Shown in pieces: positions 6,386 through 53,500 of a stretch of 64,000 bases of DNA. The stretch's first letter is position 1. Each line of letters starts with the position of its first letter. A program made the position numbers and the translations under genes. The notes below the pieces were generated by a model. It was not told the DNA's origin. It saw nothing but the letters and a program-made list of their open reading frames with translations, and did no database searches. The stretch is from Candidatus Omnitrophota bacterium (GTDB lineage Bacteria; Omnitrophota; Gorgyraeia; Zapsychrales; Zapsychraceae): positions 11,250-75,249 of the forward strand of contig JADFXT010000008.1 of the NCBI GenBank assembly GCA_015233405.1. Reading direction: 5' to 3'.

Positions 6386-6527
6386 GTTCTCCCCCTTTTT
6401 TTTATTCTCCCGCTTAACCTGTGAATTGGTTTTTCGCGGGCAAAGTTCCCCAAACTCATCAACAAAGGAAAGTATAACATCCAGAAAACCACTCGACAAG
6501 GCAGCCAAGCCTCAAAAGGGCCTTTTT

Positions 6528-9397: not shown

Positions 9398-9459
9398 TAA
9401 AAGAAATAAAAACTGCATAAAAAAATAAGGACAAAAATTCTTTTAAAATTATAGAAATT

Positions 9460-29500: not shown

Positions 29501-32500
29501 GATAAACTGTTGTGCTTTTTGGTTCGGCAGATCTTCCAAGGCAACCTTGGCCATCATGCGCTTCGCATAAGAAGGCGATTGCCTAAATATCTGCGTCAAA
29601 ACATCAACAGCCTTGTCGTCGCCTTGATGCTTTAAATAAGCGATTTTTAATCTCGTCGGGAACGAAAAAATATTTTGTTTGGTCAAGACCGGCGCCCACT
29701 GCAGTATATTTAAGAATGATTTATTAAGTTTACAACTCGCAAGAAAAACCGCCAACATCGTAAGCATGGTAACCATATGGAAAATCGTCTTTGCCGACCA
29801 CCACGCTGCTAAAGAATAAAATACCCCGGCCAATAGCGAGAACGTTATGACACCAACGCTCATCATAACAGCAATGCTCGTCGTGATAAGGCCGGTTCTC
29901 TGAATGGAAGAAACCACCTGTTCCGGCGTCTGTTTAAAAACTTCTTTCCATCCAGCATTCTTTAAAGGTTTCGCCTCAATGTTTTCTGATGAAATTTCTG
30001 TCGGATTGATTGGCGCATAAACCACTTTTCCATCAGAATCAATACCAACAACATTTTCCGTAGCATCTTTCTTTTGAGCAAAGACCAATTGTCCCTGTTC
30101 ATCGATTCCCGCAAAATCACTCACCGGCAAGAGCTCTTCTTTCTTTTCTTGGCCAAAAATCATCTCTCCGTTATCATCAATGCCTATCAATTGTTCGACA
30201 GATTCGTTGGCGGGGGCCTCTTCCTGCTCTTGCCAATCCTCCACATTTGGCTCTTGCGTTTGCCCTAATAAACTCTCAATATCTCGACGGATTTCCTGCG
30301 CTTCTTCATCATTGGAGTCTCGATTAAGAGCTTCTTGTATATTTGCCAAAGCCTCGCCATATTCAAAAGATGATTCATAGAGTTTTGCTCGTTCCTTATA
30401 AACCTCAGCGTTTTGAGGATCAAGTCTTATCGCCTGATCAAAATCACTTAAAGCTTCCTCCTTAAACCCTAACTGGGCATTCATAATTCCTTTCATAAAA
30501 TGAATCTTGGCATTCCCAGGCTCAAGAGTTCCAGCTTGCGTAAAGGCCTCCAAAGCATCTTGATATTGCTCTAATTGCCAATAAGTAAACCCAAGCCCCG
30601 CGTACACCTTGGAATTCTTGAAACCTAAATCGATTGCTTTTTGAAAATCTGCCAAGGCCTCCTGGCTTTTGGACAATTCAAAATGAAGATAACCACGCTT
30701 ATAGTAAGCCCTGACATAATTCTCGTCGATCTCAAGGGCTTTATTGAAATTAAACAGCGCTTGGTCATAGTCGCCGGACTGAAAATCAACAAGGCCTAAA
30801 ACGTAATAATTTTCTGCGCCCTGGTCATTTACGCCACCGTTTAGAACAAGAGGTTTCCGCTGCTTCTCCGCTTCCAGCGCCCTTCGCTCATGAGTTTTCT
30901 TTAATCGTGAATGGAATTCTAAAGAAAGAACAAAAATGGCTGTACGGACCCAACGAAGAACTCTTTTCTTTAAAGGAAGATTATCGAGGAATGGCTTGCT
31001 CATCTTTTGAATGGACTGGCCAATATTGGCAAGCTGTTTATTACGCATCAACAATAGCCCATAAGCAAATCCCGTCAATAAACCGATCAAATGGCCAACC
31101 TGAGCAACCGGAGCTATGGAAGCATGGGCCAATATATATACCAAAGAAATAGAAATTAAAAACGTTCTCAAATATGGATTGGATCTCGTGGCAATAAACG
31201 CGGCGGTTAATGCGAAGTCGACAACAGAAAAGCCTAAAATGTTTTGGACAAGATATTTATGCAATAAAATCAGATAAAGCCCGCTAGAAGCCAAGATACT
31301 TAATAATGAGATTATCAGAATATTCTTAGCGCCCAATTTCTTTTCAACCATATTCCCAAAGAGCCACACCACCAACATATTGCCTGTAAAATGAATTAAA
31401 TTATTGTGTAAAAATGCATGTGTGACCAGCTGCCAGATATAACCAAAATGCCAAACAGCATAGGGATATAAGGCAAAAAGATGTTTCATCCCCGTCGGCC
31501 AGAACTGCTGGAGGACAAAGATCAAGGACATGGTAAGAATAAGGCCGGTCGTCGCAGGTCGGGAAACAAATCGACCGGACTTATGTAAAATAGCCGCTAT
31601 GAGAACCAGAGCGAACGTCACAGCCATCATCACCAGGGCGGTTTCATAATCAAGGCCAAAAAACGTAGCAACAGGTTTAACCACAATAATAGTATTCGCA
31701 TTGACCACGCCTCCTAAAGCCAAGACTCCAAGAAAAGCTTTAGTGAAGAAATTTCTTCCTCTTCGAGAAGCAACAGGTTTCTTCTCAACCTTATTGTTTA
31801 AAGGAAGGTCCTTTTTCCGGCGGATTGAAGTTTTTGATTTGTCAGGACGAATCGCTTTCATAATATTCCACGACAACATTGATTCGAGTGTCGCGATGGC
31901 ATTGAATATTGCATGAAGCGTGATGGACGCAAAGAGATTGCCCGTCGTATAATAAACATATCCAAGAGCTATCCCCATAAACCACTGGATAATATTTCCG
32001 ATTTTTCCATGGGCTGTTCTAAAAATATTCGTGCTATAAAGCAGCGCTAAGAAAACCCCTAACGAAAGCTGCAAACTGACATCGAAGCCTATTGCGGGCA
32101 AGAGTAAATGAAATGGCTGGTTAAATCCCCATGGGAGAATATGCGTAAATACTTTCACCAAAAGTCTAAAGATGCCGGCTCTAAAGAACATCTCCTCAAC
32201 AATAGGAGCAATAACTGCCACAGGCAATAAACCGAACAGGAAAGACCAATTGGATAGTTTGGGAGCGTCAGGTTTTTTATCTTTCTTTTCCTTGGCGAAA
32301 ATAAAATTCGCCATAACAACAACAAAACCAATCGCATTGATTATCCATAATTTATTTTGCCAAAAGAATTGCCAACCGGCCGTTATTCCAGCTCCAATAG
32401 AAAATTGACCATGAAACAGCATCCAGAAAAAGAGGACCACGATAATTGGCCGTGCCACAACAAACAAAATTGTAAAGATAGGATTATTATATTCTGTAAC

Positions 32501-35500
32501 AAAACCTCTTAAAAATAACGTTGTAAAACCTGCAACCGTCATTAAAAGGAAACCGATTCCAATATTAGGGACAGACAAAAGCGGCGCCACTTGAAAAGAT
32601 CCTGTCATGAGCCAATAAATTTCAACGCCGATAGCAACCAATATACCGACGGCCCATGGAGCAGGAGATTTCCTTATATTATTGAGGCCAGTCAAAACCT
32701 TCTTTACGTTCAACAAAAATTTCGAAGGTTTCCGAGACGATTTTGATTTAGAAATCACTTTAGTCTGTTGGACTTTCGGAGCTTTTATTAGCGTAAGCTC
32801 TTCAGACATGATGTTAAACTGTTGCAACTGCTTAACTTCACTTGGAAAGGATTTTAAGGTTCTCTGCTCGGCATTCTCATGCGATAAACCTTGTGATTCT
32901 TCAACAAATTCATGATAATTAATAGCTTTTAGTAAAGAGGCTGGATTTTCAACAGTTTGGAGTTTATTAAATACCTTAGACGAGAGATAAATCTTCAAGA
33001 CGCCACTTTCCTCAATAGCAAAGATAAAAATCTTTGGCATCGTCGGCGGAGCAGTAGCGGCAAACTTTGCTAAATAAAATTTCACGGGCTTAGAATATAA
33101 ATATTTGTCCGCGATTTCCTTGAATAATCGTTTTGGCGACGCCACCAAATGTTTCTTTGCCCAAACTAAATGCTCTTTAGTCAAATTTCCGAAATAACCG
33201 TTGGCCTCTTTTTTGTGTTCTTCCGTCGGTCGAGCAGAGGCTTTTTTCTTGAACACCTTAACCAACGCCAACCCCAACAATCCGCCGCCTAAATAACAAA
33301 CCGCCGCCCAAAAATTACTGATCCCCATTTGAGGAACGAACAAGGCGACATACGCGCCGAAGAATCCGACAAACGTTCCAACCAAGAAGCCAACATAAGA
33401 CCAAGCGTTACCCGGCAATCGAAAAGCAAAACCCTTCTTCGTAGAGAATTTAGTCCCTAAAAGCCACATAACGATGATGGACCACGTCGGGTTAAATAAG
33501 GACCCCACGGATATCATGGCATCAGAACCTTGCGGTTTATTTAAATTGAAATAATCGATTTCCGGCCAATATATCCAATTTAACGGAAGCCAGCGACGGA
33601 CCTTTTCTTTATTATTTTCTATCATCTCTTTTGTGGAAATCGGCTTGATCCATCCTCGGGACATAGCAAACTTTTCATAAAGTCCAAAAACAGCCATACT
33701 CCAAAGCACGCAAATGATTGTTGTTGCGGTCTGATTGACCAAGACCTTGAACAGCATTCCAAATACCGTCGGGTCTATAAATAAATATTGGTTGTAAAAG
33801 ACACGTAATCCTGAGGCAAACAAAAAGCCCATACAAAGAGGGATCACAACAACCATTTTCCAGAATTCCGCTTTCTTTTCACCCACGCTCAATTTTTGTC
33901 CTTTGATTTGATTAGAAACAAGACAAACAACTTCTCCGACGATGCTAAAGATCGCCATATTGACCCAAGAAGGAAATATCCGTAACGATCCCGGGAAAAC
34001 CAAAAGAACTGTGACTGTCATCATAGAAGTTAAAATCATCAGAAATATGTAGTTATGCTTCTTTAACCACGAAATCCATTTCTTCTCTATTTTTGGCTCT
34101 ACAACTTTTTGTGGCTTAGGACTCGACATCACAAGAGCGCTCTTTACATCGACGGGTTTATTATGAATTTTTGCATATCTCTCTTTTAAAGGTTTATATT
34201 CCAATATCGAAGCATAGACTTCACCGACGATCTTTCTGACCAAAGCAAAGCCTGCGCCAGATGGATTAACAGGCGACGGCTTCGGTAAAATATGAAGCGT
34301 CGTGTAAATCTGCTGCAATTTTTCCAAAGCAAATATCCCGCCGAATGTCAGATAAGCCCCAACACTCATCAAAATGCTGCGGAAAATATCTTTTTGGGCA
34401 GTCTTGATTGGATAATTCCGAATGATCCTCTGCGAATAATTCAGCGCTCCACCGACTAAACTAACCAGCAAAATATCCAAGGCGACATTGACCTTCCCAT
34501 TCGCTACAATAATGAAAAAGACAAGATAAGCCCCGACGCTCATGGCAATGCTGCGGACAATATCTTTCTTGGCGGTGTTCTTGGGATTATCTCGAAGAGT
34601 CTTCTGAGAATAATTCAACACAACAACGGCCAGGCCAATAAACACAGCAATATCCAAAATAATACTGAAAGCCATTCCATGGGAAACCGCACTGATAGGA
34701 TTAGAGACGAACACTTTAGTCGCTACAATAAGGATGCTTGATAAACCGCTCACCAATATGTCATTGGCTAACTGACGTCGTCTGATTGCGGAGGACTCCC
34801 ATTTTCCGGTTACCTTTTTATTGGCAAGTAGATTCACTCCAACATTATGAATAACCATCAATAATACCCAAGTCAAAGCGGCCCAGAACGAATACGAAGA
34901 AAAGCCTTTGCTGATGGCCATTCCTAAAAATGTGGCGATGGAGCCATAAATCATTTTTCTGTAAGTAACCGCACGGAATTTATTGTCACTATCCGGCCTG
35001 CCATTCTCGAAGAAAATGTCGGAGCTGGCCTTGAGCCTTGAGAGAATATTCTTACGATGATCTTTTTCCGACTTAGGACTAAACATCCCTGTCAGATAGG
35101 CAATGCTCTTTAGATTAAATAGATTTTTTGTTAATACACTAGTAACGAAGTGCGGAATGTGAAGAAAAACTTCAAGGTATTCATGGAGGCTGATGGTCTT
35201 AAGAATTTCCAGCGTCATCGGGCGAGTGCGGTCTTCGGAAACAATCTTTGTAGCAGAAGATAACACAATTGGATCACTATCAAACTTCGATTGAGAGCAA
35301 AATTCAGGCGAGAAATAAATCTTTAAGGTACCGCTTTCTTGAACAGCAAAAATAAAATCGTTGGGTAGGCTCGGCGGTGCAGTAGCGGCAAACTTCGCCA
35401 AATAAAACTTTACCGGCATACCAAATAAAGAAATTCGGATATTACCAAACAATTCCTCTGGCGATATAACCATGTTCATTTTAACCCACGCCAAAAGTGT

Positions 35501-38500
35501 CTTTGTCAAATTCCCAAAATATCCATAGCTCTCCGCCGGGTTCTTTCTCGACGAGTTATTATCCTGGATTGGCTTATTAGGATTCACGACTTTTAAGCTA
35601 TATTGTTTACCGGAATCCCCTAGATCATCCACAAAAATAGATCTTTTACCCGCCACGGCTTTCCAGAAGGCAAGCGCGTCTTTATAGATATAGGTGCTGG
35701 TGATCTTAGAAACCTTTAGAGTATTAAATGCGTATTGCTTGATCTCATTAAATAACCTGGTTCCAATTCCACGGCGTCTGTGATCCGGATTAACAGCGAG
35801 CGTCATAATAACCACATCATCAGACCTGACATTGAATTTGGTAAAACCAACAATTTTATTATTCTGGTCGACGGCAAATCTGGCATTGGCGTCAAAATAA
35901 TTTGTATACGGGAGAGAAACTCTATGAAGCACGCTTGTCTTTTGGGCCCACTTTGTTAAATTGTCCCAAGCCGCCTCAACTTCTTGTTGACTCATGATCG
36001 TATTAAGATCTTTGGGTTCCACAATCCTGACGGATGCTCCTGTTACAGATTGAATGACGATATCAGCGGATTTCGTCGAGATCTCCTCTTCTTTCTGAAC
36101 CGCATTCTTCCTTTGCTCCGTAATCTCCGTCGCCTTTTGTTTTCCTTCCCCATTAGACATTAACGAGCCCGCCAGAAAAGAAGACAACGCCAAATCAAGA
36201 TTACCCGCTAATCCAATATCGCCAGCTTGCCGTGTACCGTTCATGGAATGTCTTGCCCCACGGGCAGAATCAAGCGCACGCACTGACATACGGACGAGAT
36301 ATTTTCCTCTTGCTAAATGCGGACCGCTTAAGAAAACCCTGCCGCTGCCGGCAGAAACGCGGATTTGCTGACGACGAACAAGCTGTCCTGAAAGGTTAAA
36401 GACTTTGACATCCAGATCTGCCGGCTTCGCCAAAACGTATCTGACTTCTATCGTGCTGCCGGATAGGTCATAGCGGACAATGATATTGCTGGGAACCAGC
36501 GAAGAAGAATTATCCAAAGTCGGTGTTTTCTTCCAGGCGTTCTTAAGCGTTGTATAAACAGCTTTCTCTTGCCCGTCGATCGTAAGAAGCCCATAATATT
36601 CTTCATTGGAATAACTATCATACGGCACACCGTTGTTCGCAGCGCCGCCTGCATCCTGCTGCGACGGATTTCCGGCTTTCCACCACTCATCACGCCACTC
36701 CATGAAAGTCACGCCGATACACGTATCTTTATATTTATTGACCTCGGTCCAAATATTTTGGACCGCCTGGGCCTGTGCGGCCGCATCAGCTTTGCCGGTC
36801 TGGTTGTTATAAGAATCCGTCCCGGCCTCCGAGAAATACATGCCTACATCTTTGCCAAGCTGGGATTTTAAAGTCTGCCACTGGGTAAAAATATTGGTGC
36901 CGCCGTTACGTTCACCGGCCGGGTCATCCCATCGATACACATTGATTCCCCAAATATCCACACTCGGGCATTTTTTGACCACATCCAGCGTCGGGATCTC
37001 TCCGTGGGCCGTTGCCGTCGGATGATTTGCATCATTAGCTTTTGCATAAGCCGCAGCCGTTTCAAGCTCCGTATACCAATTATTAATGTCGTTACTAAAC
37101 CATTCCGGATGAAAATTGTATTCATTCCCGAATTCCCAGAACAGGACCGCCGGGTGGCTCTTATAATTCGTAATAAAAGTTTTATAGCCGCCGTTATAAA
37201 TGTCCGGCCCGGGAACGGTGCGGTCATCATTGTGCGGAATATTAAAAATCAAGAATATCCCGGCGGCGGCAAAAGCATCCAGAACAGTTTTATCCGTTAC
37301 AGGAAAATAAAGGCGGACCGCATTGACGCCCATATCGACCATCTTGGCGATATCCGTGGAAAGATTGGTGAAATCATAACCGTCTTTATAAGTTTTTCCT
37401 TTAGCCACCGGTGAATAAGTGACCCCGCGGATCTGGGTCACGACGCCATCAATAAGAAGTTTCCCGCCGCTTTGTTTGACGACTCGCGGACCAGCAGCAG
37501 CCAAGGTCTTTGCCGTGGCAGAAGTTTTCGTTCCAGAAAAAGTTAGAAAAGCCAGGCCGGCGCCCAACGCACTTAAGAATCCTCGACGGGAAACAGGCTT
37601 CTTGTCAGCTTTGGGGGTTTCAGAAATTGTTTTGTCAGCCAGAGTAGAAGCTATGGACTGCTCATTTTTCGCGTTTAGATCTTTTATCGCAATCGGGAAA
37701 AGAGGCGCGTTGACTAAATCAAACCGGAAGCTATCTTTCTCGCCAGCTTTCTTAAATCCAAGACCAAGCCAGAAGGAATCGTTGACGGAGTTTTTAATAT
37801 CAAAATACGAACAGCCCAGGTCTTTGGATATGGCAAGCCCCAAAAGTGCGAGCGCACCCCCCAAATGTTTCTTGCGTAGGGCTAAATCGTAAACCTCAAT
37901 GGCATTGGTTCCTTGTTCATAACCATAATTAGCGAAACCAGGATTGAAATAAAAATATCCGGCCATCTGCTTTTGATCGTTAAGATAAGCAAAAATGGCA
38001 TATGTTTGATTTTCGGGAATGCTGCTTAGCGTCTTTAATTCAAAACGGACAACTGTTCCGTCGGTCGCCTTGAGTGACAACTCGCCATTCGCCAATAGAA
38101 TTCGATCAGCGTCAATCGGAGTCATTTCTCCAATGACGACCTCTTTGTCCACCAAAGACAATAAGGTAGAAACTTGTTTCATAAATTCAGAACTGGGCGA
38201 CGATATGCCCATACTCTCTATGGAAACAACTTTGTCCGGGAAGATCTTATTTAATAACTCCTTAATCGTCCCTATGGCTCGCCGGGATTCCGGAGAATTA
38301 CGCTTTTCTTCGCTATTGGCAATCTCTAAAGCCTCAGCCAAATACGGCACCACACGAATCCATCTCTCGCTCATCTCCTCAGAGGAATAATTTTTGATTA
38401 CAGAATCCGCCTTCTTCTTAAGCGGATTAACAAATTCTATTTCCCCATCTACAACGATCGGCCAATACTGTAAAGTTTGGAAAGGAGGATTGCCTCTGGT

Positions 38501-41500
38501 ATCCAGATCGCGCAATAATCTTCGCATCAAGCGCAATTCCAGAGGAACATCGACAAAGATCTTTTCTATCGGAGCATCTTTCACCTCTTCTGTCACCGTC
38601 GGAGAAAGCGCATAAAGCGATTCTAATAATAATGTTCCGTTTCTAGGCACTGAAACAATTCTCCCAGAATGCCTCTTACTCTCGTGTTTCTCAAAATCAA
38701 ACGAAGGTAAATCGACTTCTTCGCCATTCATCAAGCGCCCAATATCTTCTTTGGCCCATTCGAGGTGAATAGCCCCCGGCGAATCCCCATTCGGGCTGCC
38801 ATCCGCCAACGTTGGCCATTCGGCTATATTTTTATAATACCAATCTAAAGACAACAATAAGACCGGGCTTCCGGATTCTTCAATCTCTTTCACTTTCTTC
38901 TCGGCTAAAGTCGTTTTTCCGCTTCCGCTCGGTCCACCGATGATGATCACTTTGCGGGTATTCAGCGCGGAATTCTTAGATGCGGAGTTCTTCTTGTCCC
39001 AATTTTTTCCTAAAATAATCTTTTTAAACCATTCAAAACCTTTATATCCGAAGAATAACCCCATCGCAAATCCACCGGCGTTATAAACACCGCTGGCCAA
39101 TACTTCCCCTGTTTTGGCCAGTATATTAAGGTCCCCTATCGAGAAGTCCGTCAAAGACATCATGATGCCAAAAGAAATGTTGACGAAAATAGCTCGACGA
39201 GCGATACTCCAGAAGTTTTCTTTCACAAATTTCCAGCTTAATGATTTTTCTTCATCCTGAAGAGACTGATAATTAATAGTGAACACAGCGTTCGCTGCCA
39301 GAATAAACCAAATCATCCCGAGCCCAAACAGAAAAGAGCCAAAAGACGTCATTGCGTTAATAGCGACAACAGCTCTCGTCACTGTTTCCGCATTAGCTAG
39401 AGCACCGGACAACAAGATAAAGAAAGGAACCAAAAATACTAATTTTTTGGGCGATAAAAAGGACGGAATTTGTGAAAGCGCTTTCCATGAAGATAAAAAT
39501 AAAGATTTTGCATCTCTACAAATTTCCGGCGCGAATAAAGAAGCAGGGAAAGAATACAACGTAACATCCTTAGTCTCTGCTTGAACTTGGGTTTCTTTAG
39601 AAACAGGCAAAGGATTAATTTCCTTCAGGACTTTCTGATATTCTTCGTCGACAACATGGCGGATTTCATTAAAATCTTTGATCGAATTAATTTTCGCTGC
39701 CAATGCGCGAATTGACTCATCGTTTTCTTTTTTGGCAATCTCAGTCAAGAAACCAACTAAAAGAGTTTTTGCCCTTGCTTTATAATCATCAGACTTTACC
39801 CCGCTTTGAGGAATGTGGATGCCGAATTCTAGTGCATAATAACCAAGAAGGGTATTCAGAGTGCTCAGATATAATTCATGACTTAAACTATTATAAAGCG
39901 TAAAATTACAAAAATCCTGCGCAGCGATAACCGCCTTCTGATAAAGATTCTGTTGGCTTATGGGCCGGCCCTTTAGTGCGTCATCGATACGCCGTAAAAC
40001 CATTGGATCACGGAGCATCTGAATTGAGACCATAACGCCATCGCATCCTGTTTCGAGCATTTTGACCGCATCATCCGCCGAAGAAATATCGCCGTTACCA
40101 TAAATCAGCTTATCCGGGAATGCCTTCTTAAGCCGCTCTAAATAATCCCATTTTGCTTTGGCTGTCTGCGCTTTCTCGAATTTTCGTGGGACATCATAAA
40201 TTTCAAACTGTGTGCGGGTATGTAAAGTGATCCAATCCGCTCCGGCTTCAAAAAGTTTCTCAAAAAATTCACGCGTCGCTTCTTCATCCGGATTATGCGA
40301 ATCGTCTTTAAATAATATCCTTGTTTTAACGCTGACCGGTATTTGGACATGGGCTTTGACCTCTCTAACGATACGCGCCGCCAATTCAGGTTGATAGGTC
40401 AAACCAATTCCGCCAGTAATCTGCTTACCTTCAGGAATCCCCTCAACTTTAACCATTATTTTTTGATTAAATAAAGGAACGCAACCCATATTAATATCTA
40501 TCGCGGAGGCACCTTGCCGCTGGGCAATCAAGGCCGCTTTGACAAAATATCCTACGATTTTATCTTCGCTATCAAAAATCTGTTCCTCATTAAGCTCTTC
40601 AGGAAGGCTGTGGGGACCTGCAAGCTGAATGATCACATATCGTTCAAGGCTTGAAATATCAAGACGAGGTAAACCAGTTTTCCAGTCCGCATCAAACGAA
40701 AAACGCGGATTATAAAACGGTTTAGAAAAAATATTTCCAATACGAACCAAATCCGACTCAGTCATGAAATCGGCTTCGGAGCCTAAAAGCGCCCCAAGTA
40801 ACACCCTCTTGGCAACAACCGTCAATAGATCAACCGGCCCAGAAATTTCCTTTGGCATATTTTTATTTATTATTCTTTCAACCAAAGATTCTCTTCGCAT
40901 CCATTTGATCTTTAAAAATTTCCGTCTCTTGACAGGAGCTGATTGAATCTGGTATCCCCAATTAGAATTAAAATCTGTAAATTCTACAGTTCTTAGCTCT
41001 TTCTCGGGCATGCCAAAAATACTAACTATTTGAAGCGTTCTTGTCGGATTAGGAATAAAAAACTCCAAGAAATACTCAGACCCCTCTTTGGAAACACGGG
41101 CGGGAAGTGTAGTGTTCACATTCCCCAAAGATTTAAATCCAAACTTTCTGATGACCTGGGCATAAATATTACCTTCAAAATTTAATAGCTGTTTTGCCTG
41201 CTCCTTAAAAAACCTCAGCGGAATCTTTATGCGGAGAGCATCATATGAATTTCCAGTAGATACGACCTTAGTATCACCAAGTTGCATAATGCGACACGAA
41301 ATCGCTTCTTCTTTAGCTGTTAAGATTTCGGGGAAATAGTCCTTGTTGTCCTTTTTCAGGGCCTCACGCAAAATCGAAGATAAACGATCTCGAATCAAAA
41401 GAGGCACTTTAGTGGAAACTTCACTCCACTTCGCTTCTGGGATATCTAAACCATTAAATTTAATCATAAAATCAACTGCTAAACGTTTTGGCTCTAAAGT

Positions 41501-44500
41501 AATCCGAACAAATCTATTAGGTGTTAAATAATGATAAACATATATTCCCGCATCATTATTTGATGGAACCTTTTCTACCTTGACATCGAGAGGCGCCGTA
41601 AAGCTCATGCCAGCTTGACAAGCCGACGTCGTCCATGAACGTTCAAGTTTCGACATCAGATCAGGATTCTTCTTCAATATACCTATGATGTTAATATTTT
41701 TGCTGCCCTTGCCCTTGACATTGAATTCCTCATGGGCGTGTCCCCATGTATTAGGAGCACTCATACATCCTTCAAAGCTCACAGCCTGTTCATGACTGAG
41801 CCCTTTAACGGTCTCTAAATATTCATGTTCGGCGATTCTTCTTTGATCTAATTCAGAATCTTTTGCATTTAAATCAGGATGGTTCTGCAGAAATTTGTCA
41901 TATTCAGAAGAGGAAAGAACAACTTTAAGAAGACTGTTACTGGACTGAAAGGCCCCAAAACAAAAATCCTGAGGAACATTGAGCGCCGGCGGAGCATTGG
42001 CCGGATAAGCCATGCGATAAAATTCAACGTTGATTTTCTCCTCGCCGAAGTTCGATGATATGGATTCAAAAACCTTGGTGAGGTCACCAGGATTAAGCTC
42101 AACTTGCTTACGTAAGAACGTTACCTGGTCTGAATTAAGATTTCCATTTAGGCCAAAACGATTAGCCGAAGGCGCCTTTCCTGATTGCTGATAAGGCAAC
42201 TCTGGCTGATCCATAACCTTATTATCTTTGGCCGCAACTTCTATTTTCTCCTCTAGAAATTCCCTTACCCGTTTAAAACGCGCTTGAATTCCTTGTTTGG
42301 GTGAGACGCTGTAAAAGATTTTTATAATCTTTTTAATTCGATTAGCATACGGCGTAAAACTTTGATCGACCCTTTGCCGGATATCCATGGCTTTCCGCAA
42401 GGTGTGGCTATAATTTTTTCCCTCTGCGCGTTCGCGCAAAGCCATATCAAAAACATGAAACTCTGGGCTCATATCCCGAGGATAACCGGTTCCCGAATAA
42501 AGGGCTTCAGCTTCTTTAAGGAATATGTCGTACATGTTAAAACGCACAGCGGTCAGGATTAACTGCATTTGGATCGCCGCCGGGAACATATCGGTTTCAT
42601 AAAGCTGAATTTTCTTAACCGACTGATATAAAGAATCAAAGGCTTTTTGCGCCAATCCGTTTAATCCGAGCGATTTCAATCGTAAGAACAATTTTCCGGA
42701 TATGACCCAGATGTTATGCAATAAATCCCGGGCGACCAAAGTGTAGTTCTCTCGGTTAATTACTCCAGCCGCTTCCTTCGCCCTAACTTCTTCCCAAAGA
42801 TTGTTTAATGTTCTTTCTTGCGCAAAAGCGTCATCAACGATTCGGCTATATTTTAAAACAAAATCCTGGCGCATTTGTTTCTGCAAGAATTCTTTCATGG
42901 CTCCAGGTTTTCCAATAATGATGTCGGAAATCGTCAGGAAGTTATTATCCAAATCCCGAATCTTACGGTCACGGACAACAATATCATTTGAATCATAAAC
43001 ATTAAACCAGCAGAACTCACTGACGTAATAAAGCAAAGCGGCCAATTCTTCTTTTCTGGCTGTCTTAAGATATTCCGCCGAGAAATAAGCGGTAAACCGG
43101 CTGCGGCCGCTATGGACCATGGAAATCAAGTTTTGAATCGGATCTGAACAAATTGGTTTAGCTTTCATATCCAACTCTACAACGGTCAAGATTCCCCGAA
43201 CCTGTTTTACAATTTCGCTAACCACCCCGACCCCGAGGCGCGGAGCGACACTTTCCAAATAATCCAACGCTTCTAAAATTTTCTGAGCGCTAGTACTCTT
43301 CGTTCTATCTTCGGGCTCCGTTTCCCCCAAAGTATGATTAAGATTTTTCATATAATAATGATCATACCCATAAACAATGCCCTTACCGTAAGCGCTGACA
43401 ATACTGTTACGGGTCTGGCGAATCTGCGGATTTGTGACAATAACTTCCTTATTCCCATAATGAGACATGTAGAGGTCATAAATATGTCCGGAATATTGAG
43501 GTATCATTCCAAGTTCGTGGAATAATAAACCATAAAAATTGAGGGAAAACGGTTTATCTCCCTTAAGGGCTTCACCTTTAAGGAAGTTCTCTTTAAAATA
43601 TGCCTCCTGATTCAAGATATCCGTAATAGCTTTTTCTGGCCCATATTTTGCAATTAGTCGACGGGAATTATAAATAAAACTATCCATGTTCGTAAAATCC
43701 CGGCTTAATCGGTCAAATAACAAATCTAAAAGATCCGTCTTACTCAAATTGCCACGGCTTAACACACCCGCCAACCCTTCCACATCGCTGATGCTTGAGA
43801 AATCCTTCTCAATTTTCTTTTCTGCCGCCGGAGATTGAACATCATCGCGCTGTTGAGGAACACCCATTTTGCGAATCTCTTCCAATTCTTTCCCAGCGGT
43901 GCTCATAGAAATAATGATGTCAAATTTTTCCCCGTTAAGGCTGCGGATTTTGTCCTCTATCAGCTGTTCGGTATTAGGCCCAAGCTTGAAACTATTGACG
44001 GGCACATTTTTACCAGTCCTCTCCTTTTGCTCAAGCAGGACTAATCGAATCGTTTCCGGCGCGGAAAGGAAGGCCTGGGCCTCTCTTAAAGTCATCTTGA
44101 CCGCTAAACCTTTCTCCGCTGTGATCGTCACGCGAGGTAATATATTTCGGTGATCTTTTAAGAACGCCGCCAATGCTTTTGTGACATATCCATAATCCGA
44201 TTCGCCGAAATAAATCAAGTTTCTAATATTGTTAAATTCCGCATTCTCCGTCAGTATTTTCAAGTGGGAATTGCCGCCGGTAGAATCCATGCCGATGACC
44301 TGCTGATACAACTTAAGAAGAATGAGCTGAAATTTGAATTCGAAAACGGAATTTGTGCTGATCGCGTCAAATTCTTTGACGACTTCCTGATCCTTATAAA
44401 AGACTTTTTCTATGAACTCCAACTGGCCTAAGTTAATCTTGGAAAGTGTGGTCCCTCGTTTAATGAGAATTTCATATAATCCGGAAACCTCTCCAGCCAT

Positions 44501-47500
44501 CCCGAGAACTTTTCCAACATTTCCGGCATCGAAAGAAACAGTCTTAGCTGCGTCTTTGATCGCATAACGCGCATACTTCCTGACCAATTCATATGACGGG
44601 CCGTCATAAGACAAAAGGGCCTTGGCCTTCTTGGATAATATTTCGAATTTAAAGTGCCGGCTGCCGGTAAACTTGCTGATGACGTTAAGGTCATAATCGA
44701 AATCGGTGTTTTCAAACATTCGACCAGCTTCGATAATAAAGCTCCTGGCCTGCGCCTTCCAGGCCGTCACCTCATTGGTCCGATCATAAGCTTTGACATG
44801 GGCTTCTTCGTGGATTCTGATTTGATTGAGATATTCTTCTGCGGCGGAATAAACTTTAAGTTTCTTTTCTTTCAATAAGGCCTCAACCGCTTCCACAAAC
44901 ATTTCTTGGGTCAAGCCGTTGGCCCATACCCAACTATCACCAGCGGAGCGGGCAATATCGAATTTGTTGATGTCCGGCGGAACCGCAACTTTATTGGATG
45001 CGACGAGCCATTGGATAATAGTGCGCAGATCGTCAGCCAATAACCCAAATTTCTCTCTGACCATATCAGAGAACCGTTTCTGTTTTGCCGCCTCATCCAT
45101 TGAATCAGGATTGATCGCCTGGAATTTGATCTGTTTAATTGTTTGAAGCTTTTCTTTAATATTTTTCAGTAATGCTTTCTCAGCTTCGGTTAAAACAGAT
45201 TCGCGCGCTTTAAATTCCACTTGCCCATATAAAAGAGTTGCCAAAGGTAGCGGCACGGCATAATCGGACGCGATTTGAGGGCTTGTTAATTCTTCCCCGC
45301 GGCCTTTTCTCTGCTCAATATCTTTTTCTATCTCAGCAATATTAAGGAAACGATCATTTTCTTCTTGGTGAGGATCAAAATCATACCGGCTGACCCCTCG
45401 TCTATTTAATCGCGGTTCTAAGTCGAGCCCAAAAAGCCGAAGTAATCGATAGGTAATGTTGACATAGACTTTTTCAATTAAATGGCTGAATTGATAAATC
45501 GTCATCGTCGGGCTGTTGAGGCTATATTTGAGGGCAAAATTAGAAACATCCAAAACTCGTCGATGATGATAATAAACTTCTTCCCTTGGAAAATTAAGCG
45601 GGTCAAACTGCCAGAGCCATCGGCTGCGGCGAAGGATCATATATTTAACCAAAGCAGGATGATTGGTCATGCGGGCATGAATGTATATGCTGCCGCGACC
45701 ATTGTTCCAGACATTTCCGCGCAAAAGATTATGCGTCGACGGAACAATCTCAATTTGCTTCAAATAAGCAAATACCGCAAGCACGTCTTTATCATTTTTG
45801 CGAACAGCCTCGTCGCGCAATTCCTTTAATAGATAATCTGCTCTTTCTTGAGGTGTCAGATTAAAATACTCAGCGCCATATTTGGTAAAAAGACTATGAG
45901 CAATTCTCGAGATATGTTCGTTGAAATTGAAAACGCCGCTGACAACCATAGACCCGCGGTGGAACACATAACGCGTCATATTTAAGAAAAACGTGCCATA
46001 AAATAATGCAGCAATAAAGAGATTGTTCATCGGTAAGAGATGGACGGCAACATAGTACGTCAGAATATACCCTAGGATTTCTCCAACAAAGTTAATGCCG
46101 CTAAACACATTGACGCTGATCTTTTTTGCGAATAATAATTTCTTTGTGATTTCGCTGAGGAAAATAATGTGCCAATCATACAATATCGGCCCGCGTAAGA
46201 CGGATAAGACAATCGCCAGACGGGTTAAAAAGGACAACCGCGGCATAGAATTACGGTGAACATTTGAGTAAAATTTAAGGGCGTTTTCCAGAGCCATGGT
46301 TAAAGGAACATCTTTGTCATTCATAGCCGCGGTTTTATCATTAACGCTCTTTTCGACGGCATTCACAAGTTCCTGGCTGGAACTCTTAGAGGTCAAGACC
46401 AATTCGTGGCTGGCATTGATGACATAATCATAAAGGCCTTGTTTGATATCAAACGACATTTTCTTAAAGAACGCGTCGGGGATCATGACGGCAGCGCGTA
46501 AACGGGCAATGAGAGTTCCCCATCCTTTTTGTTCGGTTTCCCGGGAGACATATCTGTTTTGAGCGGTTTTCCTGTCCGTAATAACACCGACTTTCCGTGT
46601 CTCAGCTAAATCCCTAAAAATATACGAAGACAGCGCGCCTTCAATGACCAGAACCATGCCTTTAGTTAAGACGGCATCCGGCCCTTCCGACAAACCGTTA
46701 TCACTCCTTCCCAAATATGAGTTCCTGAGCGCCGCAACTTTACCAATGGCTTCCTGAGGATTTTGATTAAGGGTTTTCCTGGACTTCGTCAACCAGTTCA
46801 TAAAATCGTTGATTTTCCGGCCATCGAAAATCGCAGCATAGACCAAAGCCTGGATAAAATTCAGAAGCTTGATCTGAAGCTGCTTGATCGGCGATAAAAC
46901 AAAGTATAATAAAACCAAAACAGCGGCCATCGGTGCAAACAATAGCGGAAGCTTGCGTTTTAAGAACCAGTCTGATTCCAAATGCAACGTCAGATATCCT
47001 TGCGCTTGAAGATATCGTCTGAAATTATATGATAAGCTGGACTTTCCACTTCCCGGCGTACCGTCAAAAATAAACACAGGAACATCTGGGCCTTGAGGCA
47101 GGCCTTTAAATAATTGGTCAAACACCTGCGCTTCTTGCTTCAACTGGTTCGTTTGGGCAGCCAAAGCATTTGTTTCATTGCGTTCCTTCTCGTGGATATC
47201 AATTTGACGCAAGACCCAACTGATTTCATTAGGTAACAAACTGAAAGTTTTTAAGATTGTAACCAGTTCTTTACGTTTGGCAGGGCCCCAGGTGCTGTTA
47301 TCGGCAATGGGCGTATTAAGAACAAGTTCTGTTTCACCGGCAGATAATTGAAGTCTGATTTGTTCATCCGTAAGACCAAATATCGACGGAGGAGCTTTGA
47401 TATGGCCGGATTCTATCAAATATTTGAGAGCGACCTTAAACAAGATATTTCCAAGCCTCATCAAGGAATTGTAAACATAAAATTCTGTCTTATGTTGACC

Positions 47501-50500
47501 TGCTTCGTTATAAACCGCTTTAGTTTTGATAAAATGCTCCACCGGTGAGATCAAACGATTTCCTTCAAAATTGGGCATTAATTCTGCCACTTTTTTCGGT
47601 GTTAAAATCTTCTCATGACCCAACCCCGCCGCTTTCGCCAGCTCTTTTAATCCCTCCTCTGAACCAATAAAAACAATAGAACCTAAAGGATTAGGAATAA
47701 GCGTGCGCTCGGCGTGGGTCTTGCCGCGTTCAAGGTCAATCCACGGAATATGCGCTGCCATTCCTCGCCTTAACCGGGAAACAACGTTCGCGAATTTATC
47801 CTTATTAAAATTACGGAAAATATCAATCGTTCCATCTTCTTCGATGTCTGCAATGGTCCGGTCTTTTAAGAAATTACGGCTATAGCCAACAATGTGGCCT
47901 CCCTGATTTCTTAAAGCATCCACATAAGCCTGGACCTTCGGGCTATCGAGATAATGGACTCTTTCTGTAATAGCCGGATCATAAAGGCTATCGACGGCGA
48001 TAAAAAGAATTGGCTTTATTTGGACTTTCCGGTTCTCAATTTCCTTGATCTTTGCCTTGATATCCGCTGGAAGAATGAGCTTCAGCTGAACCTTATGAAG
48101 ATATTGAAGATACTTTGCCCCTAAAGAAGCAAGATTATAATCATCACGGTCTAAAATGTTTTCTTTTAAGAACACAACAAATTCATCAATCCTTTTCGAC
48201 GCATCCCAGCCGATGTAATGGCGTGCCATGGCCCAAAGGGCATCTTCTCTCACAGAAGGATCCGGATCGGTTAAGATCGTTTTCTTGAATATGCCGACAA
48301 TCCTCCTAAAAATCTCTTCTGATTCTTGATAAGCTTCCGTCGCTGTTTTATCTTTTTCATTGTGGAAACCGCCTAATGCTAAAATGCTGGCCGTTCTGAC
48401 TTCCACGCTTTTCTGCTGAGCGTAATCTGCATTCGCCTCAAGGATGTCGAGCGTATCTTTGATTTCTTGGCGAAGCATCTGCGCGCTACGGACGATTCTA
48501 TGTTCGAAATATTCTTTTATCGATAAGGCGGCATATCTCTTCGTCCAAAACCTCTTTTGGGGATCTTTAAGAATATTCGTCAAGACAGGCAAAGACCTTA
48601 TAGATCTCAATGTTTCTCCGCCGAGCGTACGCACTCCGGCGTCTTCGACGATAGAAAGCGGGTCACGCAAACTGTCATGAAGGATCACGTCGTAAACTTC
48701 ATGACGTTCGTCCTCATGTTTGCTCAGATAATTTGCAAATTTTGCAAATGCTCCGACAGCAACCTTTCTGACCCAGGGGTCTGGATCATGCTGAGCTAAC
48801 TCAAGAAGAAGATCATAAGCCTTTAACGCTGCGTCATCTTTTAACTTATCGCTACGCATAAGCCGACCAAGGAATTTGACCGCAAGCTCTCTAGGCCCGA
48901 TATATTCAAGGCTCGACGCTGTTCTAGGATCATACGGCATAGAGGCGTCCTTCATAAAGACCTCTAAAATAGCCGGACCTTGGTTCTTGAACAAATTCAA
49001 AGAAATATCTTTTTTACCTAAGAAATTCTTTCCTTGCTGGATTTCCTCTTTGACGCGATTCACGAGAGCGGTATATTCCGAATGGTTCAATTCTTTCCTA
49101 AGTGTTTTACGCATAAACCGACGGACAATGAAATAAACAGGGATCGCAATAGGTTCCAAGTGGATAACGAATAAAATGGCAGCCAAAGTCGGGAATCCAA
49201 GGGCGGCAAGGACTAGCGGTCCTAACCAATCATCTATAGCAAAGAGAATAACGATAAAAGCAACAAATCCTAAGCCTTCTTTCATCGCCTTTTTCCATGA
49301 AGCCTTAAACGTCCTAACAGGATGGATGATGTCATCCACAGTTTCTTTTAAATATTTAAAAAAGAAATCCCAAATTTGGCCCAACACCTTTTTCGTCCAA
49401 ATGGAAAATGGCAGGCGCTCACGGTCGTTTTGATAATTTCTAAAAATACGGTCGACGCCGGCGACACCGATTTGGCGCATCACGTTGGTTTTAATAGCCT
49501 TGCCTTTCCAGTACGTGAAAAGCGTAACCCCAACAGCTGCCAAAACAATCAACGCCCATACTTCAGTGTTTAAGCCTAAAATTTTGAAACTCGAGACCGC
49601 GTTAATTGCCGCGAACTTATGAGACTCGGCGCTGGCTAAAGAAACCAATCCGCTTAATCCCAGCGCACTACCAATTAAGGCGACTTGTTTCAAATCGCTT
49701 TTCTTTGAAATAACAGCCGGGACAACAGCTTTATTATTCAACGACGGCTTGATCGATTGTAAAGCCTCGTCCGCGCTCTCGACGATATGAAGCAAATCCG
49801 CATCCTGCGGCTTGATAAGCTGAGCCGATGGGAAACTAATCATGGCTTTAACGACCGCTTCTTTGATCGGCGTCCAGAATTTGCGGCCCACTAGAATAAT
49901 CGGTCTTTTTTCCACTTTACCTGTTTGAGTGATCGCCACAAGGTCGAACAACTGGCTCATGGTCTTAGCTCTTCCGGGCAAGAAAACAAAGGCCGATGAA
50001 TTCTCAGCAAGTAAAATATGCTGATTGGAAAGGTGTGCCGTAAAAATGCTGTTTTTTGTCTGCGTTATGGAATTCAGATCACGAACAGCCACTGTCTCCT
50101 GAATCAAATCCGTTTTTTCGCCTGCGGCATTCTCTAAAATTCGTTTTAAATCTTTATTAACAGTCCCTAATCGCACCGGCACATTGTCAGATAATAACGA
50201 CGACGCTATTTGTCCGGCAATGGCTTCTTCAGATTTGTCCATTAATTCTGATTGTCCGATAAACGTAACGCTTTTTGGTAAGCGGCTTAATCGGCTCAAC
50301 ACCGAGCTAATATCATCGTTAGCTTCTTTGAGCATTTCAGACGAATCGTCAATGGTCTTATAATCAAACGGCGGCGTCTTCAAATATGCAATGGCTTCTT
50401 CTATAGAATCCGTAATGAGCGGCAAGTTCTCTATTTTGTCCATCCAGCCATATTCGCGCCAGCTCTGATAAAAGGATTCCATGATCGGCGTCCAGAAATC

Positions 50501-53500
50501 TTTGCCGAATAATACGACCGGCAATTGCCTATACCAGACTTCGAACAATTCATCCAAGGTGCCGAATCCGCCGGGGAAAACCACGATGCCGCGGCAATTG
50601 TTATAAAGCCCCATTTTTCTGGTCACAAAGTGCTCGAAACGATAAACATCCTCTACGTATTCAGAGGTCTTTTGTTCAAACGGAAGTTGGATCCTAATCC
50701 CTTGTGTTTGATTTACAACGTTTTTCGCTTGACCGGCCGTTGCCCTGGCTTCGATATATCCTTCCAAAGGCGCTTCCATCATCGACGGGCCAGCCCCTGT
50801 CCGAATTTTTAAGCCGGCGTTGTAAATCGCCTTGCCGAGTTCCCGGGCTTTGTCAAAAACAGGACTCGTCGACGGGATTCTCGCGCTTCCAAAAATCGCC
50901 ACGGCCTTCGGCCAAAGTAAGTGAATTTGCCGGACAAGTTTTCGCTCTTCTTGAAATTCTTTAATTAACTTGCTCGTTCGAACATCGACGGGGAAAGGCT
51001 CTTTCTTATTTTTCTTCAACCGCAACCCTGCGCTCAAAAATACCATCACACCCAAAACCTTCAGCATCGGGATAACAGCCGCAGCCAAAAAGTATTGCCA
51101 AGCTCCGCTAAGAATAAAGACCACCATCGCCGCCATACCTATCCACTGCCATCGCCCAGAAACATCTAACATCTTTTCTTCATTTTTAGTTATTCTCGAA
51201 AGAAGCACATTAAAACCATCCAGCGGAGGAACCGGCAAAAGGTTGAGGGTCATTAAAATCAAATTAATAAAAACGACTTGCGATAAGAAGACCTCAAAGC
51301 CCAAATGCCAAGCTCCGGATAAATGAACTAATCCTGTGAAGACAACAGCGAGAATCAAGTTAGCGGCAGGACCGGCAAGAGCGACCCAGAACATCCCTTT
51401 ACGGCCGACTTTAAAAATGTCGACTGGGACCGGCTTTGCCCAACCAAAACTAATTAATAACGGAAGAATGATCGTTCCGAAAAGATCGATATGCGCCAGA
51501 GGATTGAGTGTCAACCGTCCTGCTTTCTTTGCGGTGTCATCCCCAAAACGATAAGCAACATACCCGTGAGCGAATTCATGGAAACTCAAACTGATTAAAA
51601 CAACAGAGATCATCAGAATTCTTTGTAATAAATGCGGTCCAATCAAGGCCATCCCCGTAAAACCAAAGAACATCCAATTTTTAAATGAAGGCTTCTTGAT
51701 CCGCTCAATGACTTTCGAGAGGAATTTATTCGACGATAAAGTCGAATTTATTTTCCCAATAATCTTTTCTCTGTTGTTATAAGCACCCTTAAAACTCGAA
51801 AGCGCTTTTTCGACGGATAAAAATAAAACCTTGCCACCATTTTGTGCTAACTTGGCCAAGGAAATTCCAAGCTCTCGGCTTAATATCGATACAGCGAATG
51901 ACAATATTATGATGCCGACAATTAAAACAGCAATGATTGCCCCGGCAGGAGAAAAAGCTTGAGTAGAACTTGAAATTGCGGCGGTATCGACAACAGCTTG
52001 AGCTGCCCCCAGCGATGATAACCCGCCAGCCGCAGCACCAGCTCCTCCCACAGCCGCCTGAATATGCCCTATCGATAACAAGACCGTGGCCATCAATCCA
52101 CCGACAATGTTACGCTTCATATGGCTTGCTGGTTTTTCTACCCTCGGTGTATCTAAGCAAACTATTTGGCTCTGCGTTGTTTTTTCCGGTGTGGGTTTTT
52201 TAATCTCTTTGTTCAATGACTTAATCACCATCGGCAGAAGTCTTTGAGCTGAGGCATTTTCAAAAGGCTTCTCGGAAAGAATCTTCAATGTCAAAACTTT
52301 CGATTCATTCCTAGAGGAGATAATCTGCATCGCAAAAGTGCTCAAGTCGACATAATGAAGGGTTGCAATAGCTTCCTGATTTTTAGAAATAAGCGCCAGC
52401 GATATTAAAGTATTAATGCTGCGTTCGTCTCCCTTTTCTGCCCCTAATTTAAGCTTCCAAAGTATGCCCGCGGCTTCTTGGGCATACTTATCAGACCCTT
52501 TGGGCAATTCTAGTTGCGCCGTCGTATCCTGTTTGCTAAGAGAAGTGTCGCTGATGGCCGAGGCCGCACGCATTTCAGAAGAAAATAATAAAACCAAAGA
52601 AGCAGCCATTATCGAGGAGAGGAAAAATCTGCGCCCAAATAGAGATTTGCGCTTAAGCGATGTTTCCGGTTTATTAGGCGTATTATCCGCAGGCTTAACA
52701 GCAAAAGCTGGCATCTTTGCAGAGTCAGAAACTTTTACCTCAGGCAGACCAAGTTTAATAAGCGCGCTATAAATCTCAGCATTCTCAATTGAAATCAATC
52801 CATTGGCTTTTACATCTTCAAGAGCTCTGGCGCATTCCAACCATTCCCGCTCATTAATAAGCCCTGTCAAAGCAGTATCGATGTATTTCTCTATATCCTG
52901 GACAGGAAGACATTTCATTTTATTAACATCAATGCTGGCGCCTACAAGCTCTACCCACCAACCATTTTTCTTCATGCCATCTAGAACAATTCTGGCTCGA
53001 CCGGCCATCTGATCCTTGTCGACGTTAAAAATGTCGCATTTCTGTATAACATCCAAACAACCAAGCCAATCATTTCTCTTTGTTAAATTCTCAAAACTGG
53101 TTTCCGCATAGGCAGAAACATTCTTAATAAATCCTTTTTCAAAGCCTTTTAACGCGATGTTCAAATATCCGAAATAATATTTCTGCTTTAAAAGGACGTT
53201 TAAATACGTCATTACGCTGGATTTTGTGTTAATAATATTTTTGTCAATTGCAGTCATAACGACATTGGCGTATTCCCAGAGCATGTTATTATCTTCGAGG
53301 ACAGTAAGATGAGTCTTAATGTCATCTTCCGTCGTCAAGATCCCAGCCGCTATACCTTCCTGGACTTTTTGTGAATATCTCGATATCCAGCCACTTTGCT
53401 CTATACTCTTTAAAGATTGAGCAAATCGTTCCTGGCTATTGTTGAGCGTAAAACCATTTCGAGCAGCTTTGATGACAACATCGGAAAGCTCAGTATAAAA

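Follow-up and report, generated by a model that had tools for sequence, protein, structure and literature searches.

A giant multi-enzyme membrane protein with three internal twin-arginine segments that may act as start-transfer signals

A giant reading frame and its twin-arginine segments

The 64,000-nucleotide stretch of contig JADFXT010000008.1 analysed here (the window) is dominated by a giant open reading frame (ORF) on the reverse strand. Its product carries three internal segments, RR1, RR2 and RR3, in each of which a pair of arginines (RR) precedes a hydrophobic stretch. We propose, with moderate confidence, that all three would serve as internal start-transfer signals, N-terminus inside and C-terminus outside (N-in/C-out), of a giant multi-enzyme membrane protein. 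The frame has no stop codon over 52 kb and stays open up to base 64000, so its N-terminus lies beyond the window and all amino acid (aa) numbers are relative; they are counted from the GTG at 63766, as in a preliminary description of this DNA. The two peptides singled out there are encoded exactly where it had put them, RKSLFGRRFFLSSIMAASLVLLFSSEMRAASA at 52556-52651 and VEKKPVASRRGRNFFTKAFLGVLALGGVVNA at 31697-31789, both on the reverse strand.

Pfam scans of the giant protein, run on four overlapping pieces, returned about 20 families above their own cut-offs, most of them cytoplasmic-type enzyme domains. They comprise PPDK_N/PEP-utilizers, cytidine-deaminase-like, four LOG (Lysine_decarbox), HEAT and Dus domains, two PRK/uridine-kinase modules, GNAT, His_Phos_1, FGGY kinase, Ldh/Mdh, Bac_transf, ribulose-phosphate 3-epimerase, radical SAM and TPR. 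Hydropathy scans added 57-82 hydrophobic segments, depending on the threshold. The product thus belongs to the giant multi-enzyme membrane proteins of the Omnitrophota type, which are known from two preprints (bioRxiv 10.64898/2026.06.07.730766; 10.1101/2023.11.21.568195). Like the Omnitrophota "multi-enzyme metabolic clusters" described there, it exceeds 10,000 aa, joins many enzyme Pfam families and has many transmembrane helices, repeated modules and no sequence-level orthologues. The gene is flanked by MutS and MutL genes. The MutS is 63% identical to that of Candidatus Omnitrophota MAG246 and at most 45% identical to those of all other genomes, and this one neighbouring marker points indirectly to an Omnitrophota host. 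In the closest genome, the MutS-MutL neighbourhood (L001) contained no giant ORF and no similarity to the present one.

The three RR segments resemble signals of the twin-arginine translocation (Tat) pathway to different degrees. RR1 combines a Tat-like RR-x-F-L motif (GRRFFLS) with a 17-aa uncharged hydrophobic core (h-region), a basic residue in the c-region that follows and an A-S-A site. RR2 has the best Tat consensus of the three (SRRGFLS, with RRGFL at aa 8727), a weakly hydrophobic, Gly/Ala-rich h-region, a Lys in the c-region and an A-T-A site. The uncharged core measures 17-18 aa in RR1 and RR2, and in both the -1 Ala of A-x-A lies 24 residues past the second Arg. The preliminary description had counted three RR-x-F-(L/F) motifs, which is right for RR1 (RRFFL) and RR2 (RRGFL) but not for RR3, where the motif is degenerate (RRGRNFF), the c-region has no basic residue and the site is only VNA. 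A literal RR-x-F-L also occurs at aa 7614, but without a hydrophobic stretch behind it.

All three segments have N-flanks with a net charge of +4 to +5. The C-flanks of RR1 and RR3 carry a net charge of -1, and that of RR2 is net positive, with 5 Lys/Arg and 1 Asp within 25 residues past the h-region. The charges past the helix are K8747, K8753 and R8761 in RR2, one Arg and one Glu in RR1, and none fitting in RR3. On the summed Hessa scale the RR2 core (+5.3) is among the least hydrophobic in the giant protein, while RR1 (+2.8) and RR3 (+2.3) are intermediate.

The background for motif frequencies was a set of 1,087 ORFs, 465,000 aa in total, taken from the 80 loci that had been fetched with MutS. 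The giant protein has two occurrences of RR-x-F-[LFIVM] with an uncharged hydrophobic core behind it (0.115 per 1000 aa, against 0.0114 per 1000 aa for internal positions in the background), a roughly 10-fold enrichment, and composition shuffles gave an expectation of 0.03 for RR-x-F-[LF] plus a hydrophobic stretch, against 2 observed. By these motif statistics RR1 and RR2 are well above chance. When a 38-aa RR2 segment was aligned to every window of the giant protein (about 5,700 windows), the top two matches were RR1 (score 46, z 6.4) and RR3 (score 45, z 6.2-6.5). RR1 and RR2 each pick the other as best match (z 7.0 and 6.4; runners-up z 4.4-4.6), in an ungapped 37-residue alignment that keeps RR and A-x-A in register. 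For RR3, no other place in the giant protein matches better than RR2, with which it has KKPV(A)SRRG in common, and RR3 belongs to this class in degenerate form. In their DNA the three segments show about 64% column identity, with indels. This low similarity ruled out recent duplication of the cassettes and leaves either an origin shared long ago or a constraint common to them. Judged by sequence, a single type of cassette with Tat-signal anatomy occurs in three versions, RR1, RR2 and a degenerate RR3.

These comparisons bear on a simpler explanation, in which the segments would be ordinary transmembrane helices whose basic flanks happen to hold RR. It applies chiefly to RR3, which lacks the x-F-L spacing and is followed by another helix 18 aa later. 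A plain RR with a hydrophobic core is not enriched in the giant protein (0.46 against 0.30 per 1000 aa in the background), and some RR flanks are expected among its many hydrophobic segments. The strict motif is nevertheless enriched about 10-fold, RR1 and RR2 find each other in register, and RR3 finds RR2 before anything else, so that coincidence seems clearly improbable.

A different possibility is that the long ORF is read as several proteins, each RR segment being the N-terminal signal of one. An in-frame ATG lies 27 codons before RR1, and the long n-region that it would create is a usual feature of Tat signals. However, no Shine-Dalgarno-like sequence stands at a working distance from this ATG (the nearest GAGG is about 24 nt off), and no ATG, GTG or TTG occurs within 15 codons upstream of RR2 or RR3. 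Together with the uninterrupted frame, this makes internal translation starts very improbable.

The RR segments are not the only signal-like elements within the chain. A rule-based scan, in which at least 2 Lys/Arg had to precede an uncharged hydrophobic core and A-x-A had to fall 12-30 residues past the last charge, returned 8 segments in the forward sequence of the giant protein and 2 in the reversed sequence; RR3, with VNA, is additional. Their -1 residues are aa 3320, 3737, 3911/3913, 4713, 8126, 8752, 10882 and 11652. Such segments make up 9.8% of the hydrophobic segments of the giant protein and 3.7-4.3% of those in background ORFs (p 0.012-0.024). Four hydrophobic segments cluster from aa 4695, and the charge pattern fits N-in/C-out for the first of them.

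Table 1. Features of the giant ORF, in order along the protein (aa from the GTG at 63766; nucleotide positions within the window).
Feature	Protein (aa)	Window position	Strand	Remarks
Giant ORF		11573..64000	-	17,397 aa from first GTG (63766); >17,475 aa by open frame
Internal signal-peptide-like segment	3283-3320	53807..53920	-	...NMLSTLTLSILLSAGALFADA, then G
RR1	3706-3737	52556..52651	-	RKSLFG-RR-FFLSSIMAASLVLLFSS-EMRAASA, then I
Hydrophilic segment after RR1, 148 aa	3738-3885	52112..52555	-	predicted periplasmic if RR1 is N-in/C-out
Peptidase M50 (site-2 protease-like) membrane domain	4041-4248	51023..51646	-	HEFAH in first helix
Internal signal-peptide-like segment	4684-4713	49628..49717	-	SKKSDLKQVALIGSALGLSGLVSLASA, then E; textbook-like
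HE-module, copy 1	7187-7328	41783-42208	-	internal repeat
Internal signal-peptide-like segment	8099-8126	39389..39472	-	SPKKLVFLVPFFILLSGALANA, then E; textbook-like
RR2 ("glycosidase" signal)	8719-8752	37511..37612	-	KADKKPVS-RR-GFLSALGAGLAFLTFSG-TKTSATA, then K
Clan GH-A TIM-barrel glycoside hydrolase	8753-9094	36485..37510	-	fold closest to GH158 endo-beta-1,3-glucanases
Seven-strand beta-sandwich	9095-9164	36275..36484	-	aligned to C-terminal sorting domain (type IX secretion system) of stand-alone homologues
Weakly hydrophobic segment	9184-9202	36161..36217	-	IGLAGNLDLALSSFLAGSL; candidate stop-transfer
HE-module, copy 2	9395-9539	35150-35584	-	internal repeat
HE-module, copy 3	10181-10299	32870-33226	-	internal repeat
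CPBP/Rce1-like intramembrane protease domain	10367-10640	31847..32668	-	upstream of RR3
RR3	10660-10690	31697..31789	-	VEKKPVAS-RR-GRNFFTK-AFLGVLALGGV-VNA, then N
Strongly hydrophobic transmembrane segment	10709-10728	31583..31642	-	hairpin with RR3 ahead of rhomboid core
Rhomboid protease core	10737-10908	31043..31558	-	stand-alone rhomboids align from about aa 10735
Internal signal-peptide-like segment	11628-11652	28811..28885	-	ARKPLSISKIGLLVLFGLTATASA, then A

The hydrolase unit headed by RR2

A search with aa 8715-9235 against 5.8 billion proteins gave 238 matches, and what is said here of homologues refers to the best 120 of these 238. All of them are stand-alone proteins of 317-431 aa, several are annotated as Bacteroidota, and some bear a C-terminal sorting domain of the type IX secretion system (T9SS). 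The best homologue is 44% identical and has typical Bacteroidota genes around it. In the alignment the RR2 h-region falls on the N-terminal signal peptides of the homologues, the mature domains begin in one shared column, and the unit's C-terminal part falls on their sorting domain. This collinearity with complete secreted precursors strongly supports capture of the hydrolase module as an entire precursor gene. The preliminary description had suggested that several of the fused units were once independently exported; the end-to-end alignment with stand-alone secreted enzymes bears this out for the glycosidase unit, but not for RR1 and RR3, where the stand-alone M50 and rhomboid homologues begin downstream of the RR segments.

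An AlphaFold model of the unit, computed from this alignment, shows a confident TIM barrel followed by a seven-strand beta-sandwich, with the RR2 region itself unstructured. The nearest solved folds are GH158 endo-beta-1,3-glucanases, which are extracellular enzymes, then GH2 and GH157, and the catalytic motifs FGNEYN and FSEAG (Glu) are conserved. The tail is less well preserved: it reaches 19.8 bits with TIGR04183 (cut-off 23) and an E-value of 0.053 with PF18962, it lies internally instead of at a C-terminus, and it has no PNP motif. Compared with the T9SS cargo glycosidases of Bacteroidota, which consist of a signal, a GH2/GH158-like barrel and a Por_Secre_tail (e.g. P0001-P0009), the RR2 unit is collinear at 35-45% identity but differs in lying within a giant ORF, in its RR-type signal and in a degenerate tail that runs on into further protein. 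Composition was also considered as a mark of foreign origin and was not decisive, the GC content at third codon positions being raised only mildly (z 1.3-1.9).

None of the 120 homologues has RR within its first 25 residues, and their signals are all of Sec or lipoprotein type. RR2 therefore does not owe its twin-arginine character to that family as sampled, and its signal, on this comparison, is now of the giant protein's own RR type, unlike those of its stand-alone relatives.

The RR segments could also be leftovers of the signal peptides of engulfed genes, now at most ordinary anchors or without any role, in which RR and A-x-A are unselected. The hydrolase unit retains a degenerate T9SS-type tail, sub-threshold and stripped of its PNP motif, which is presumably useless outside Bacteroidota-type secretion; RR3 is degenerate as well, and the low DNA similarity among the segments gives no sign of recent copying. 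Against such fossils stand the intact catalytic residues of the hydrolase, an endo-beta-1,3-glucanase-like enzyme without an obvious cytoplasmic substrate, and the resemblance of RR2 to RR1 and RR3 and not to the signals of its own homologues. The identical spacing of RR1 and RR2 and a charge pattern that would suit a working topology determinant in all three point the same way. We consider the fossil explanation unlikely.

Topology, export and possible cleavage

The alternative offered in the preliminary description, that the segments act as internal start-transfer signals, fits all three: each has a strongly basic N-flank, and the local topology is consistent if they lie N-in/C-out. Each also comes after a cytoplasmic-type stretch or a basic loop. 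RR1 is preceded by 350 aa without hydrophobic segments, which follow a hairpin behind LOG domains. RR2 has the cytoplasmic-type PRK and GNAT-like domains ahead of it, without an intervening hydrophobic segment, and the hydrolase unit behind it. RR3 comes after the CPBP domain and a loop of about 12 net positive charges.

RR1 had been placed ahead of a soluble segment and the M50 block. The hydrophilic 148 aa are there, but the M50 domain is not adjacent: the HExxH helix, at which stand-alone M50 homologues start, comes about 330 aa past RR1, and the intervening part holds two hydrophobic segments and a 77-aa loop in addition to the hydrophilic stretch. With RR1 N-in/C-out, the next two segments would let the M50 HExxH helix enter from outside, in agreement with the stand-alone homologues, in which this first helix stands at the N-terminus. 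For the 148-aa segment itself we found no Pfam domain and no homologue, and a word-indexed protein search with aa 3600-4260 returned only 3 stand-alone M50 proteins.

Similarly, RR3 had been placed directly ahead of the rhomboid block; it is upstream, but the transmembrane segment at aa 10709-10728 intervenes, 18 residues past RR3. The N-in topology of rhomboids is known, and a hairpin of RR3 and this segment would leave the first rhomboid helix N-in, as in the known enzymes. Remote homologues of the CPBP module occur within other long proteins, in none of which an RR segment or a rhomboid follows; this speaks mildly against RR3 as part of an old conserved unit. Pfam searches at relaxed thresholds on the flanks of RR1 and RR2 and on the HE and HExxH modules described below gave nothing usable.

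The mechanism that we envisage starts from a giant chain that would be made and inserted co-translationally via SecYEG/YidC. The basic n-region of each RR segment would remain cytoplasmic, with the RR pair acting at least as a strong positive-inside determinant, while the hydrophobic core would enter the membrane and the downstream stretch would pass to the periplasm until the next hydrophobic segment returned the chain. In this way RR2 would export a complete laminarinase-like module (a GH158-like barrel with an Ig-like tail), RR1 would export the 148-aa segment ahead of the M50 protease, and RR3 would form with the next helix the hairpin that sets the orientation of the rhomboid core. On the periplasmic side, signal peptidase I could cleave the A-x-A sites and cut the giant chain there.

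Relatives that might show conservation were sought widely. No orthologue of the RR-containing parts was found in the set of 5.8 billion proteins, 1.84 billion representatives, GTDB genomes or JGI metagenomes. Within this effort, a word-indexed search with aa 10360-10960 gave no match, and scans of GTDB genomes and JGI metagenomes with aa 8700-10960 gave no relative. Exhaustive HMMER searches with aa 10170-10960 against the 1.84 billion representatives yielded only remote rhomboid, CPBP and HE-module matches, none with E <=1e-30.

Several observations weigh against start-transfer signals as we propose them. The topology was assigned by hand-made rules instead of a trained predictor, and across the M50 block its parity is ambiguous, as helix counts cannot be fixed by hydropathy. 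Behind RR2, the only candidate return passage before the next GNAT domain is the weak segment at aa 9184-9202, and the Lys/Arg directly past the RR2 h-region are unfavourable for Sec translocation. RR3, taken as RR plus a hydrophobic stretch, is not above chance and is like an ordinary positive-inside helix, and the A-x-A enrichment across the protein is real but modest (about 2.5-fold). The hidden Markov model (HMM) for Tat signals, TIGR01409, gave RR2 10.5 bits (E 0.64) against a cut-off of 16.7 and did not match RR1 or RR3. No orthologue in the collections searched bears out selection on the RR pairs or A-x-A sites, and seven other long proteins that share modules with the giant protein contained no convincing internal Tat-like segment.

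Signal prediction had been proposed as a check in the preliminary description; the Pfam TAT_signal model (PF10518) matched none of the three segments, and TIGR01409 stayed below threshold. RR1 and RR2 are like Tat signal peptides (TIGR01409/PF10518; S/T-R-R-x-F-L-K) in the R-R-x-F-L core of the motif, a Gly/Ala-containing h-region of moderate hydrophobicity, a basic c-region and A-x-A, but the RR segments lie thousands of residues inside a protein, score sub-threshold, and in RR3 depart from the motif. Internal RR pairs directly before an N-in/C-out helix are otherwise found in dual Sec/Tat polytopic proteins (actinobacterial Rieske, Sco3746, polyferredoxins; PMC3471235, PMC5449189). There, low hydrophobicity and C-terminal positive charges pass the internal RR helix from Sec to Tat (PMC5449189), and RR2 is similar in its low hydrophobicity and the positive charges that follow. 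In the known cases, however, no transmembrane segment comes after the RR helix, and the C-terminal domain behind it bears a cofactor, whereas here between 6,700 and 13,700 residues, with many transmembrane segments, still lie beyond each RR segment, and the exported domain would be a cofactor-free hydrolase.

True Tat export would take the form of a polyprotein. The chain would be cut by signal peptidase I and/or the embedded proteases, new N-termini would arise close to the RR cassettes, and the Tat translocase would export the RR1 segment and the folded hydrolase after translation. RR1 and RR2 fit this with their motif, a weak Gly/Ala-rich h-region, a basic c-region ("Sec avoidance") and A-x-A in the same register; the weak core and positive charges recall the Sec-to-Tat handover in dual-targeted proteins (PMC5449189), and the absence of RR from the homologues' signals makes the RR type look newly acquired and not left over. 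Cleavage of giant-protein products is left open by both preprints (bioRxiv 10.64898/2026.06.07.730766; 10.1101/2023.11.21.568195), and the giant protein has M50, CPBP and rhomboid protease domains. On the other hand, no cleavage site is identifiable upstream of any RR segment, and in an uncut chain the RR motifs would lie from >3,700 to >10,600 aa from the N-terminus, with thousands of residues and many transmembrane segments after them. Every internal Tat motif known so far stands before the final transmembrane segment of its protein (PMC5449189), and Tat acts post-translationally on folded substrates, which makes Tat transport of an uncut chain unlikely and, judging from these motifs, plausible only if the giant chain is cleaved beforehand. 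The exported domain needs no cofactor, the Tat HMM score is below its cut-off, and a literature search found no paper linking Omnitrophota and Tat, which also counts against this possibility. Taken as a whole, export by Tat appears quite unlikely.

In the flavivirus polyprotein and in the FbcH cytochrome b/c1 precursor of Bradyrhizobium japonicum, internal signal sequences are cut by signal peptidase. The giant ORF could be a flavivirus-like bacterial polyprotein, with internal cassettes, some of them bearing the Tat-type twin-arginine motif, starting translocation at set points, signal peptidase I cutting at A-x-A and at least the folded laminarinase module exported or released as a protein of its own, although we consider this fuller scenario quite improbable. 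It shares with those polyproteins internal n-h-c segments with small residues at -3/-1 whose cleavage would part functional units across a membrane, but cleavage of the giant protein is a prediction from its sequence, the chain exceeds 17,000 aa and spans about 20 enzyme families, and the Tat-type motif has no counterpart there. If cleaved, the chain would be expected to show new N-termini at ISDTSLSK (aa 3738), KTLAAAGPR or TLAAAGPR (aa 8753) and NTIIVVKPVATFFGLDYE (aa 10691).

Returning to start-transfer signals, their interest lies in how giant membrane proteins reach their topology. Both preprints leave open how membrane proteins of 10,000 to 150,000 aa cross the membrane in part, and whether they are cut. 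Internal signal peptides are unanalysed in either, and in bioRxiv 10.64898/2026.06.07.730766 such calls were suppressed as chunking artefacts; cleavage has so far been discussed only through C39 and S8 peptidase domains (Omnitrophota giant-protein preprints), neither of which had a Pfam match in the part of the giant protein that lies in the window. What is new here is that an Omnitrophota giant protein has signal anatomy of the Tat type at several internal places, the giant-protein class itself being known. At least one internal signal stands at the head of a complete, apparently functional secreted-enzyme module, and it belongs to a small cassette family with a Tat-like motif, fixed spacing and a signal-peptidase-type site. 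If the cassettes work, use of the twin-arginine motif would extend beyond N-terminal and last-helix signals, and one way for giant genes to grow would be by engulfing whole precursor genes and re-using or replacing their targeting signals. A polyprotein, if true, would answer the question of one chain or many for Omnitrophota giant proteins.

Proteases, repeats and neighbouring genes

Three intramembrane-protease families, M50 (aa 4041-4248), CPBP/Rce1-like (aa 10367-10640) and rhomboid (aa 10737-10908), stand on one polypeptide, together with dozens of potential transmembrane substrates. These proteases would be candidates for processing the giant chain itself.

The giant protein also contains internal duplications. 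The PRK/uridine-kinase module occurs twice, at aa 8265-8545 and aa 14621-14902 (about 38132-38974 and 19061-19906, reverse strand), with 83-90% aa identity. A double LOG module likewise occurs twice (aa 2853-3263 and 4267-4680; 46-57% identity). These duplications indicate that the giant gene grows not by gene capture alone but also by copying parts of itself.

An unannotated module of about 130-150 aa, the HE-module, is present in three copies (Table 1) and twice each in two other long proteins (P0139, P0145). Its invariant residues are G..G, F, A-P-P, F, S, H-E-x-x-E and H (GYFGNLT...KFY...APP...FIFA...IYFS...HEYxE...SHExA). It had no Pfam match, a metagenome scan gave no relative, and its AlphaFold model (mean predicted local distance difference test score, pLDDT, 48.7) was too poor for use. 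Giant proteins may contain it as a linker domain of a metal-binding or peptidase-like kind.

Short HExxH motifs recur near the boundaries of enzyme units, at about aa 1240, 2835, 6390, 15640 and 16520 (read from the translation by eye). Their local contexts are alike, for example ...LYVNPNILRGPPEQLRIIFEDHEFLH and ...IYLHTSIRNDPEQLKIFFHEIVSHL. These could be minimal zincin-like elements relevant to self-processing.

Some units of the giant ORF, such as the Ldh unit, presumably begin where stand-alone enzymes would start. At about aa 12648 (...SPTKLMKVTVTGAAGQIG...), by eye, a Met precedes the malate/lactate dehydrogenase Rossmann motif much as at the start of a stand-alone enzyme, and a partial duplicate of the Ldh N-domain lies immediately upstream of the unit. 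Starts of this kind would fit a giant ORF assembled from whole genes.

A second long ORF occupies window positions 1 to about 4721 on the reverse strand, with at least 1,572 open codons, and runs off the left end of the window. It begins with a Sec-type signal peptide (cut predicted between KSKTYKLINILILLSFILNSVLPAQLSFA and QTLP), and the remainder is built of tandem repeats, each about 1.69 kb (563 aa) long, whose copies share 72-80% nucleotide identity. Between the two long genes, a 468-aa ORF (5102..6508, reverse strand) has, by eye, an N-terminal signal peptide, MNISKKIFISTIFVSLLFFFLGIDARA, followed by K at the putative site, and its translation shows one TPR-like stretch and a long coiled-coil-like region.

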